Assembly: GCF_056712565.1 (NCBI RefSeq)
Contig: NZ_CM160072.1
Length of the DNA stretch: 64,000 bases
Direction: 5' to 3' (one strand)
The position numbers and the translations under genes are program-made. The notes beneath the pieces were generated by a model. It worked only from the letters and a program-made list of their open reading frames with translations, was not told where the DNA came from and did not search any database. This document shows positions 22,049 to 22,519 of the stretch, one piece after another (the first letter of the stretch is position 1; every line of letters starts with the position of its first letter).

Positions 22049-22519
22049 ATGACAAAATCATGGAGCGTACCTTTTCCTGAATCAGAAACTGAACATGATG
22101 GAATGCCTGTTTTCTGGAGATTCCAAGCGACAGTTGAAGAAGATGGAATCAAAATATTCGCACTTCAATATATAGCTTTTCATCAGACAGAGCATTATGC
22201 ATGGTTGGTTCCTGCGCATTGGATTGTTAATTTTAAACCAGCACCAAATCAGTGGTTACAGGAATGGAAACAAAGGAGAAATAGATATGCAATTAAGAAA
22301 GTAGCAAAAAATGCAGAAAGATCTTTTGCATTCCCGACGAAGAAACTTGCCATTGAAAGTTTATTGCGCCGGAAGAAATACCATTTGATGAGAATCAAAC
22401 AAGATTTGGCTGTTGTATCAACTCTTGTTGATGGGATGAAGAATATTGATACATCAACACCAGGTATTGAATATAACTTTGGACACAACCAAGAAACAGA
22501 AAACTGGGTGTTTTATTAG
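22049..22519 (+). CDS. Hypothetical protein (156 aa), AT-rich moron directly after N
   Basis: Strong Shine-Dalgarno (GAGGTGATAT-ATG) 9 nt after N stop; markedly AT-rich; Trp-rich soluble protein, no recognised family. Confidence 0.6.
   Translation: MTKSWSVPFPESETEHDGMPVFWRFQATVEEDGIKIFALQYIAFHQTEHYAWLVPAHWIVNFKPAPNQWLQEWKQRRNRYAIKKVAKNAERSFAFPTKKLAIESLLRRKKYHLMRIKQDLAVVSTLVDGMKNIDTSTPGIEYNFGHNQETENWVFY

Follow-up and report, generated by a model that had tools for sequence, protein, structure and literature searches.

The window analyzed in this work is a 64,000-nucleotide stretch of contig NZ_CM160072.1 (NCBI RefSeq assembly GCF_056712565.1), approximately the first 27 kb of which are occupied by a lambdoid, P22-like prophage. 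The 1.1 kb of this prophage that we tested is 100% identical to prophages of Escherichia coli S88, APEC O1, and ATCC 11775 that adjoin torI and dsdC. Directly downstream of its N-like antitermination gene lies an open reading frame (ORF) of 156 amino acids (aa) at positions 22049–22519, which sequence comparison identifies as a gene of the HK97 gp45 family, already catalogued as hypothetical since the genomes carrying it were annotated. Its product is 98.7% identical over all 156 residues to gp45 of phage HK97 (NP_037731) and 99.4% identical, again over all 156 residues, to ST933Wp19 of phage 933W (NP_049479) and vb_24B_11c of phage phi24B (ADN68407); unnamed ORFs of BP-4795, Stx2-86, Min27, and many Shiga toxin (Stx) phages of the Stx1a and Stx2a kinds also share 99.4% identity with it. 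The phage protein group phrog_1636, whose function is not annotated, matches residues 1–156 of 156 (expect value, E, 1.1e-111). In HK97, 933W, and phi24B the gene likewise follows N, has the same low guanine-plus-cytosine (GC) content, and is followed by the same 3' untranslated region (UTR) and terminator. As a discovery in this window the ORF is therefore an ordinary one, viz. a known hypothetical gene without evidence for a defence system. The features of the locus are as follows.

20569–21219, plus strand: LexA-type cI gene with its terminator, the upstream neighbour of the pL-like promoter.
21312–21340, plus strand: pL-like sigma-70 promoter (TTGACC, 17 nt, TAAATT) inside operator repeats, located by promoter scan.
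21657–21685, plus strand: putative nutL site read directly from the sequence, comprising a boxA-like TGCTCTTT (21657–21664) and a boxB-like hairpin GCCCCTC-AGTTC-GAGGGGC (21667–21685).
21741–22040, plus strand: N-like antiterminator gene, 99 aa (phrog_271, E 2.9e-36; a RefSeq coding sequence in S88; junction alignments).
21987–22048, plus strand: leader of the gp45 cassette, including the Shine-Dalgarno sequence GAGGTGA (22039–22045), from alignment to HK97 and 933W.
22049–22519, plus strand: gp45-family ORF, 156 aa, ATG start (ORF list, phrog_1636 match, alignments, AlphaFold2 (AF2) model, composition, and the ratio of nonsynonymous to synonymous substitution rates, dN/dS).
22534–22561, plus strand: 3' UTR hairpin with a perfect 12-bp stem and a 4-nt loop, without a U-tract (RNA fold; inverted repeat I3).
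22624–22649, plus strand: intrinsic terminator equivalent to tL1, GCCCTC-CAGTGT-GAGGGC followed by TTTTTTAT, which forms the right end of the cassette (terminator scan, RNA fold, HK97 annotation).
22714–22884, plus strand: cIII-like ORF, 56 aa, the first gene past the terminator and outside the cassette (a RefSeq coding sequence in S88; HK97 cIII at the same place), which we take from reading its sequence to resemble lambda CIII.

Along the plus strand, cI and its terminator are followed by inverted and direct operator-like repeats (21266–21341) together with the pL-like promoter, then by the nutL-like site, putatively so named by analogy with the nut sites of lambdoid phages, and then by the N-like gene and the gp45-family ORF. 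The stop codon of N (TGA) occupies 22038–22040 and the ATG of gp45 begins at 22049, with an intergenic gap of 8 nt. Because the gap is so short and the N stop is overlapped by the Shine-Dalgarno sequence, translational coupling of N and gp45 is possible.

An initial annotation of the window, based on its sequence and a list of its ORFs, had described an AT-rich ORF of 156 aa directly after N, and the base composition of the ORF bears this out. The GC content of the ORF is 0.367 (0.293 at third codon positions), that of neighbouring genes 0.435–0.527, and among 471-bp windows of the prophage (positions 1–27000; mean GC 0.484, standard deviation 0.032) the gp45 locus is the lowest. The description of the product as a tryptophan-rich soluble protein also holds, as it contains 7 Trp (4.5%), has an isoelectric point (pI) of 9.3, and shows no hydrophobic segment when its sequence is read by eye. 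The strong Shine-Dalgarno sequence that had been placed 9 nt after the N stop is present; the 9 nt, however, are counted from the stop codon to the ATG and not to the Shine-Dalgarno sequence. The location of the gene between N and tL1 is likewise correct, since the sole intrinsic terminator-like site on the plus strand from pL to cIII is that at 22624–22641. The statement that the protein could not be placed in any family remains true of characterized families, to none of which it has a match, but not of catalogued ones, as it is the hypothetical protein HK97 gp45/phrog_1636.

Comparisons with related phages delimit the gp45 cassette on both sides. HK97 and 933W are near-identical to the window from position 21987 rightward, the N genes upstream of this point being unrelated, and this left junction coincides exactly with the end of the N genes in those two phages. 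The last 17 codons of the N gene in the present prophage come from the gp45 leader, which in HK97 and 933W is non-coding spacer and where the gap between N and gp45 is ~58 nt as opposed to 8 nt here; as judged from these alignments, a different N allele has been joined to the cassette at 21987 in this prophage. The N-like gene is itself mosaic, with residues 1–55 identical to N of phage phi367 and a different C-terminal part. In phi367 (Oslovirus; record 1516–2885), where N is followed by two small ORFs, ral, gp45, and the terminator, the shared sequence begins after ral, only ~18 nt before the gp45 ATG. The gp45 cassette of phi367 remains beside tL1, other accessory genes being inserted between it and N.

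On the right side, the four phages compared (HK97, 933W, PA28, and this prophage) are identical through the 12-bp hairpin and the terminator stem and then diverge at once, so that the junction lies just past 22641; the similarity to 933W and PA28 stops directly after the terminator stem. The genes beyond the terminator vary (cIII in HK97 and here, ea10/ssb-like genes in 933W and phi24B, and a P22-gp17-like gene in PA28), and the gp45 gene is always the last before tL1 (HK97, 933W, phi24B, PA28, phi367, and 611R6). Because of these left and right junction alignments, the mobile unit is seen to consist of the Shine-Dalgarno sequence and leader, the ORF, the 3' hairpin, and tL1, with a total length of ~600–660 bp.

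The terminator at 22624–22641 has a T-run after its stem, and the HK97 record annotates a putative terminator at the same site. This terminator is directly followed, at 22662–22681, by another terminator-like hairpin of lesser strength (AACGCTTCACTCGAGGCGTT plus TTCGTT), which HK97 has as well but 933W and PA28 lack. The hairpin at 22534–22561, which is identical in HK97, 933W, and PA28, lies ~60 nt upstream of the terminator. The 151-nt stretch that contains it has an RNA fold z-score of -4.7, and a scan of positions 21000–23200 against Rfam, including this hairpin, yielded no match. This hairpin could be a site for RNase III or other processing, or an element that stabilizes the transcript. 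Farther to the right (window ~26800–38500), the S88 annotation places the end of the prophage close to a torI-like excisionase gene beside dsdC and dsdX, and the ORFs beyond this end, up to ~38500, appear from their size to be ordinary chromosomal genes.

A search with the ORF alone detected it in 597 (11%) of the 5426 complete E. coli genomes examined and in 83 phage records out of 50,697. The exact sequence is found on at least 999 contigs, where its name is always 'hypothetical' or 'prophage protein', and the same is true of the source names of every one of 639 cluster members. We found no functional study of the gp45 family in the searchable literature, where an RNA-seq table for phi24B provides the sole data. 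Homologues from Enterobacterales with identities down to 55% share 40 invariant columns, five Trp among them, and 87 relatives, mostly of 130–160 aa, were recovered at E ≤ 1e-3 when 1.84 billion cluster representatives were searched with a profile. Two hits of this search, P0062 (940 aa) and P0080 (444 aa), were discarded, as they consist of repetitive, low-complexity sequence. Relative to the HK97 and 933W copies, dN/dS is 0.03–0.05. On the strength of this ratio, the invariant columns, the 87 relatives, and a structural model of high confidence described below, we regard ORF 22049–22519 as a real gene and not a chance ORF.

The same observations bear on the proposal that the protein is dispensable and that the cassette is kept mainly for its tL1 terminator and/or the RNA element in its 3' UTR, viz. 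the 12-bp hairpin. In its favour, the terminator and the hairpin accompany the ORF in all cases, without any difference among the four phages compared, and the gene always stands last before tL1. However, the dN/dS values indicate strong purifying selection on the protein, unrelated phages in which this UTR is absent retain homologues of the protein at identities down to ~20%, and the RNA element belongs to no Rfam family, all of which make this proposal hardly credible.

In regard to its expression, a simple consensus scan found no sigma-70-like promoter on the plus strand between pL and position 23300, pL being the sole site, and a terminator scan found no intrinsic terminator on this strand between pL and 22624. 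Since no separate promoter is detected for the gp45 gene, and since the first intrinsic terminator is reached only after it, the gene would share the pL transcript with N and be expressed immediate-early, and its location between pL and that terminator implies that gp45 would be made with N before antitermination is established. Expression data are available for the 99.4%-identical gene of phi24B, as distinct from the copy in this prophage. Upon norfloxacin induction of a phi24B lysogen, vb_24B_11c rose 43-fold with a reported P of 0.27, and the early genes exo (98-fold), bet (89-fold), gam (137-fold), and ssb (79-fold) all carry the same P of 0.27, whereas the values for genes expressed in lysogeny were 1.2 (cI), 1.8 (stk), 1.4 (bor), and 0.65 (vb_24B_13c) (PMC4651098 Table S4). 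This pattern is that of a repressed pL gene, and not of a gene for lysogenic conversion or defence.

These results are pertinent to the view, put forward in the initial annotation, that the gene is a moron with a cargo or defence function. On this view it would be expressed from the prophage and would benefit the lysogen by superinfection exclusion, by abortive infection, or in some other way. The AT-rich, discrete cassette with its own terminator is like those of classic morons, the gene is very common in E. coli prophages, and it occupies what, on the maps of lambda and P22, is the slot of sieB and ral. Against this, the consensus scan found no promoter belonging to the gene; the 43-fold rise of the phi24B orthologue on induction (P 0.27) differs from the 1.2–1.8-fold change of the lysogen-expressed cI, stk, and bor (PMC4651098); T1-like phages in which no lysogeny genes are annotated carry a homologue, and virulent phage groups have fold relatives; gp45 is soluble, whereas SieB is membrane-bound; and PADLOC-DB 2.0 returned only Cas1_II (E 0.018, 12.3 bits over 45 residues), which is noise and not a credible match. 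A lysogen-benefit role consequently appears quite improbable, and the suggestion of a cargo or defence function is not upheld by our analyses. What survives of the moron designation is that the gene is an accessory one on a mosaic, AT-rich cassette; expression from a promoter of its own, without regard to induction, does not. The gene is also not a core one, as the genome and phage counts given above show. The annotation had further compared the location with the slot of ral-, sieB-, and rex-type genes, which is apt for ral and sieB, genes of the pL operon, but not for rex, which is not known as a gene of the N-to-tL1 interval in lambda.

The structure of gp45 was modelled with AF2. An alignment of 21 close homologues gave a model with a predicted local distance difference test score (pLDDT) of 53, which is unusable, whereas the 78-sequence alignment A2, to which distant relatives were added, gave a pLDDT of 95.4 and a predicted template modelling score of 0.83. 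In this model gp45 is predicted to be a compact alpha/beta protein, in which a long sheet of three strands is succeeded by two short helices, one more strand, a long helix, and a tail. The strands extend over residues 19–30, 33–46, 50–55, and 83–86 and the helices over residues 57–61, 66–74, and 98–130, the last being of 33 residues, and the ordered C-terminal tail ends in a conserved aromatic residue at position 155. The sensitive profile and structure searches returned only uncharacterized relatives. No match was obtained in Pfam for the single protein or for any of the 78 family members, or in NCBIfam; searches of PDB sequence profiles with alignments A1 and A2 gave only matches at E ≥ 0.3, which represent coiled-coil noise; and Foldseek searches of AFDB50 and BFVD found uncharacterized proteins only. 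Two of the Foldseek matches are named 'transposase', a label without support.

The family also shares a pronounced distribution of charge. The pI is above 8 in 91% of the 78 members, positions 24, 75, 76, 83, 84, 87, 92, 98, 108, 109, and 117 are at least 60% basic across the family, the segment 57–130 has a net charge of +12, and a basic stripe formed by residues 75–117 is kept throughout. Because this stripe is kept in hosts ranging from Vibrio to Enterobacterales, it suggests that gp45 may bind a universal polyanionic ligand, most simply nucleic acid.

Homologues of gp45 in temperate phages and prophages (from Pectobacterium, Marinobacterium, Pseudomonas, Vibrio, and metagenomic contigs) are always located in the leftward early operon, where their co-oriented neighbours include RecT/YqaJ, RdgC, DNA methylases, excisionase, and integrase in variable positions. 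Distant members repeatedly follow a DNA cytosine methyltransferase gene at a distance of 2–4 genes and are themselves closely followed by xis/int (in a Marinobacterium prophage, the metagenomic prophages L018/L019, and Pseudomonas phage Medea1). A 64%-identical homologue is present in Salmonella phage NX263 and Escherichia phage Bas81 (Bas81 record 17905–20174), where it comes first in a small cassette, oriented leftward among structural genes, and is followed by a ParB-like gene, two small ORFs, and a RusA-like gene. No integrase or repressor is annotated in NX263 or Bas81, and the full annotation of Bas81 shows a T1-like gene content. The usefulness of the gene to phages without lysogeny genes argues against a role confined to the protection of lysogens. 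Low GC accompanies the gene in other phages as well, being 0.445 vs. 0.501 in Pectobacterium and 0.388 vs. 0.47 in NX263 and Bas81.

Foldseek detected relatives (probability 1.0, E 4e-7 to 1e-3) in Erwinia phage phiEa2809, Achromobacter phage phiAxp-3, and Delftia phage RG-2014, and likewise in phages of Rhizobium, Sinorhizobium, Tenacibaculum, and Cellulophaga; N4-like and Vi1-like phages are among the carriers of fold relatives. The N4 protein gp2 is a single-stranded DNA-binding cofactor of RNAPII, and the possibility that the fold relatives in N4-like phages correspond to it was rejected, as the A2 profile had no match among N4 gp1–gp14.

Some of these genomic settings, viz. the order gene, Exc, Int in Pectobacterium, the order gene, AlpA, Int in L018/L019, and the location of the L006 and Medea1 homologues near int, would fit a DNA-binding accessory of the lysis-lysogeny or integration-excision circuit, for example an architectural or regulatory protein that acts with Xis/Int or at early promoters. 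The conserved basic stripe and the expected co-expression with N, just before cIII, are in accord with such a function. In the lambdoid phages of E. coli, however, gp45 lies far from int/xis, its close homologue is carried by T1-like phages without an annotated integrase or repressor, and no helix-turn-helix, ribbon-helix-helix, or other known DNA-binding motif was detected in the protein. We consider a function in these circuits improbable.

The location of the family at or near the head of early operons is also compatible with a function in counter-defence or host takeover for which gp45 would bind a host protein and not nucleic acid. Candidates for such a target are RNA polymerase, a nuclease, an RNase, and an effector or sensor of immunity. 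The first-expressed phage proteins that gp45 would then resemble include T7 Ocr, as well as lambda Gam and Ral, which are encoded in the same operon. The patchy and mosaic spread of gp45, with its presence in 11% of E. coli genomes and its variable neighbours, is typical of accessory genes engaged in an arms race, and it adjoins ral in phi367 and is found in operons with gam, abc2, and DNA methylases. On the other hand, the basic stripe is kept across Vibrio, Pseudomonas, and Enterobacterales and fold relatives occur in phages of Bacteroidota and Rhizobium, and so wide a range is easier to reconcile with a universal ligand than with an immune protein specific to one host. Further, the known inhibitors that mimic DNA are acidic, whereas gp45 is basic. 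A host-protein target thus appears unlikely, although less so than the other alternatives considered here.

The explanation that we favour, tentatively and at somewhat less than an even chance, is that gp45 is a pL-driven immediate-early accessory protein of lytic development, which probably binds nucleic acid and whose cassette also supplies tL1. According to this explanation, the gp45 cassette would be a small mosaic unit of the leftward early operon, placed as the last gene before tL1. Its gene would be silent in a stable lysogen and would be transcribed from pL together with N once repression is lifted or phage DNA enters the cell, before N-dependent read-through is needed. The protein would then bind nucleic acid (or possibly a conserved acidic host factor) and would serve lytic development, either in the handling of phage DNA or RNA or as an accessory of host takeover or counter-defence, and not in the protection of the lysogen.

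Several considerations weigh against this explanation. The consensus promoter scan is a simple one by which weak or non-sigma-70 promoters would be missed, and Rho-dependent termination may occur between N and the gp45 gene. The induction value of the phi24B orthologue, like those of exo, bet, and gam, carries a P of 0.27 (PMC4651098 Table S4). The proposed binding of nucleic acid is deduced from the pattern of charge, and searches of Pfam, NCBIfam, PDB, and Foldseek provided no characterized homologue at the level of sequence or fold. Lastly, Bas81 and NX263 are termed virulent on the basis of their gene content.

The gp45 gene is carried by medically important Stx phages (933W, phi24B, and those of the Stx1a and Stx2a kinds) and by about one-ninth of complete E. 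coli genomes. To what was known of it, the present work adds the boundaries of its cassette, its probable immediate-early position, its link to a broad family also represented in phages without lysogeny genes, and a high-confidence structural model that has no solved relative. If the timing proposed here is correct, the proteins made before antitermination would number only about three, viz. N, Cro, and gp45. A more far-reaching possibility, speculative and to our minds rather doubtful, is that gp45 and its distant relatives constitute an immediate-early class, with a fold that lacks a solved relative, that binds a universal nucleic-acid structure or a conserved host factor and thereby neutralizes an immune pathway or redirects host machinery, representing a new mechanism of counter-defence or takeover. 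Should this be true, the mechanism would be common to lambdoid, Stx, T1-like, N4-like, and marine phages.

Among known systems, the accessory genes located between N and cIII in lambda and P22 (viz. ral, sieB/esc, ea10/ssb, and P22 gene 17) resemble the gp45 gene in slot and orientation and in being non-essential and mosaic. In phi367, 933W, and PA28 the gp45 gene directly adjoins genes of this set (ral, ssb-like, or gp17-like). These accessory genes, however, have no similarity to gp45 in sequence or fold. In particular, no similarity was found between gp45 and the Ral family (roughly 66 aa), and the idea that gp45 replaces ral was rejected, as phi367 has both genes side by side. SieB reportedly resides in the membrane and is encoded by a gene that has a promoter of its own and, for Esc, an internal start (Ranade and Poteete, 1993), whereas gp45 is soluble and basic, lacks a hydrophobic segment, and has no promoter that we could find. 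The gp45 cassette shares sharp junctions, a deviant composition, and a terminator of its own with classic lambdoid morons (sensu Juhala et al., 2000; e.g., HK97 gp15), but differs from them in that no promoter of its own is detected, the expression of its orthologue follows induction, and it is also present in phages without annotated lysogeny genes.

Closer in kind are the distant (18–27% identity) or fold relatives of gp45, viz. phrog_13631, phrog_25384, phrog_28215, and proteins of Vibrio, Pseudomonas, Proteus, Pantoea, Erwinia, Rhizobium, Achromobacter, Delftia, Cellulophaga, and Tenacibaculum phages. These proteins, all of which are uncharacterized, have the same length and order of secondary structure as gp45, the residues G33/T47/K87/A101, the basic stripe, and a location in early operons, but unlike the enterobacterial clade they lack the N-terminal extension of 18 residues and the GHN.ETE.W motif. 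With the HK97 gp45 family itself, the ORF described here shares both of the features by which that family is defined, viz. a full-length match and a place in the pL operon after N and before the terminator, and it is distinguished from its HK97 and 933W counterparts by the different N allele to which its cassette is fused in this prophage.
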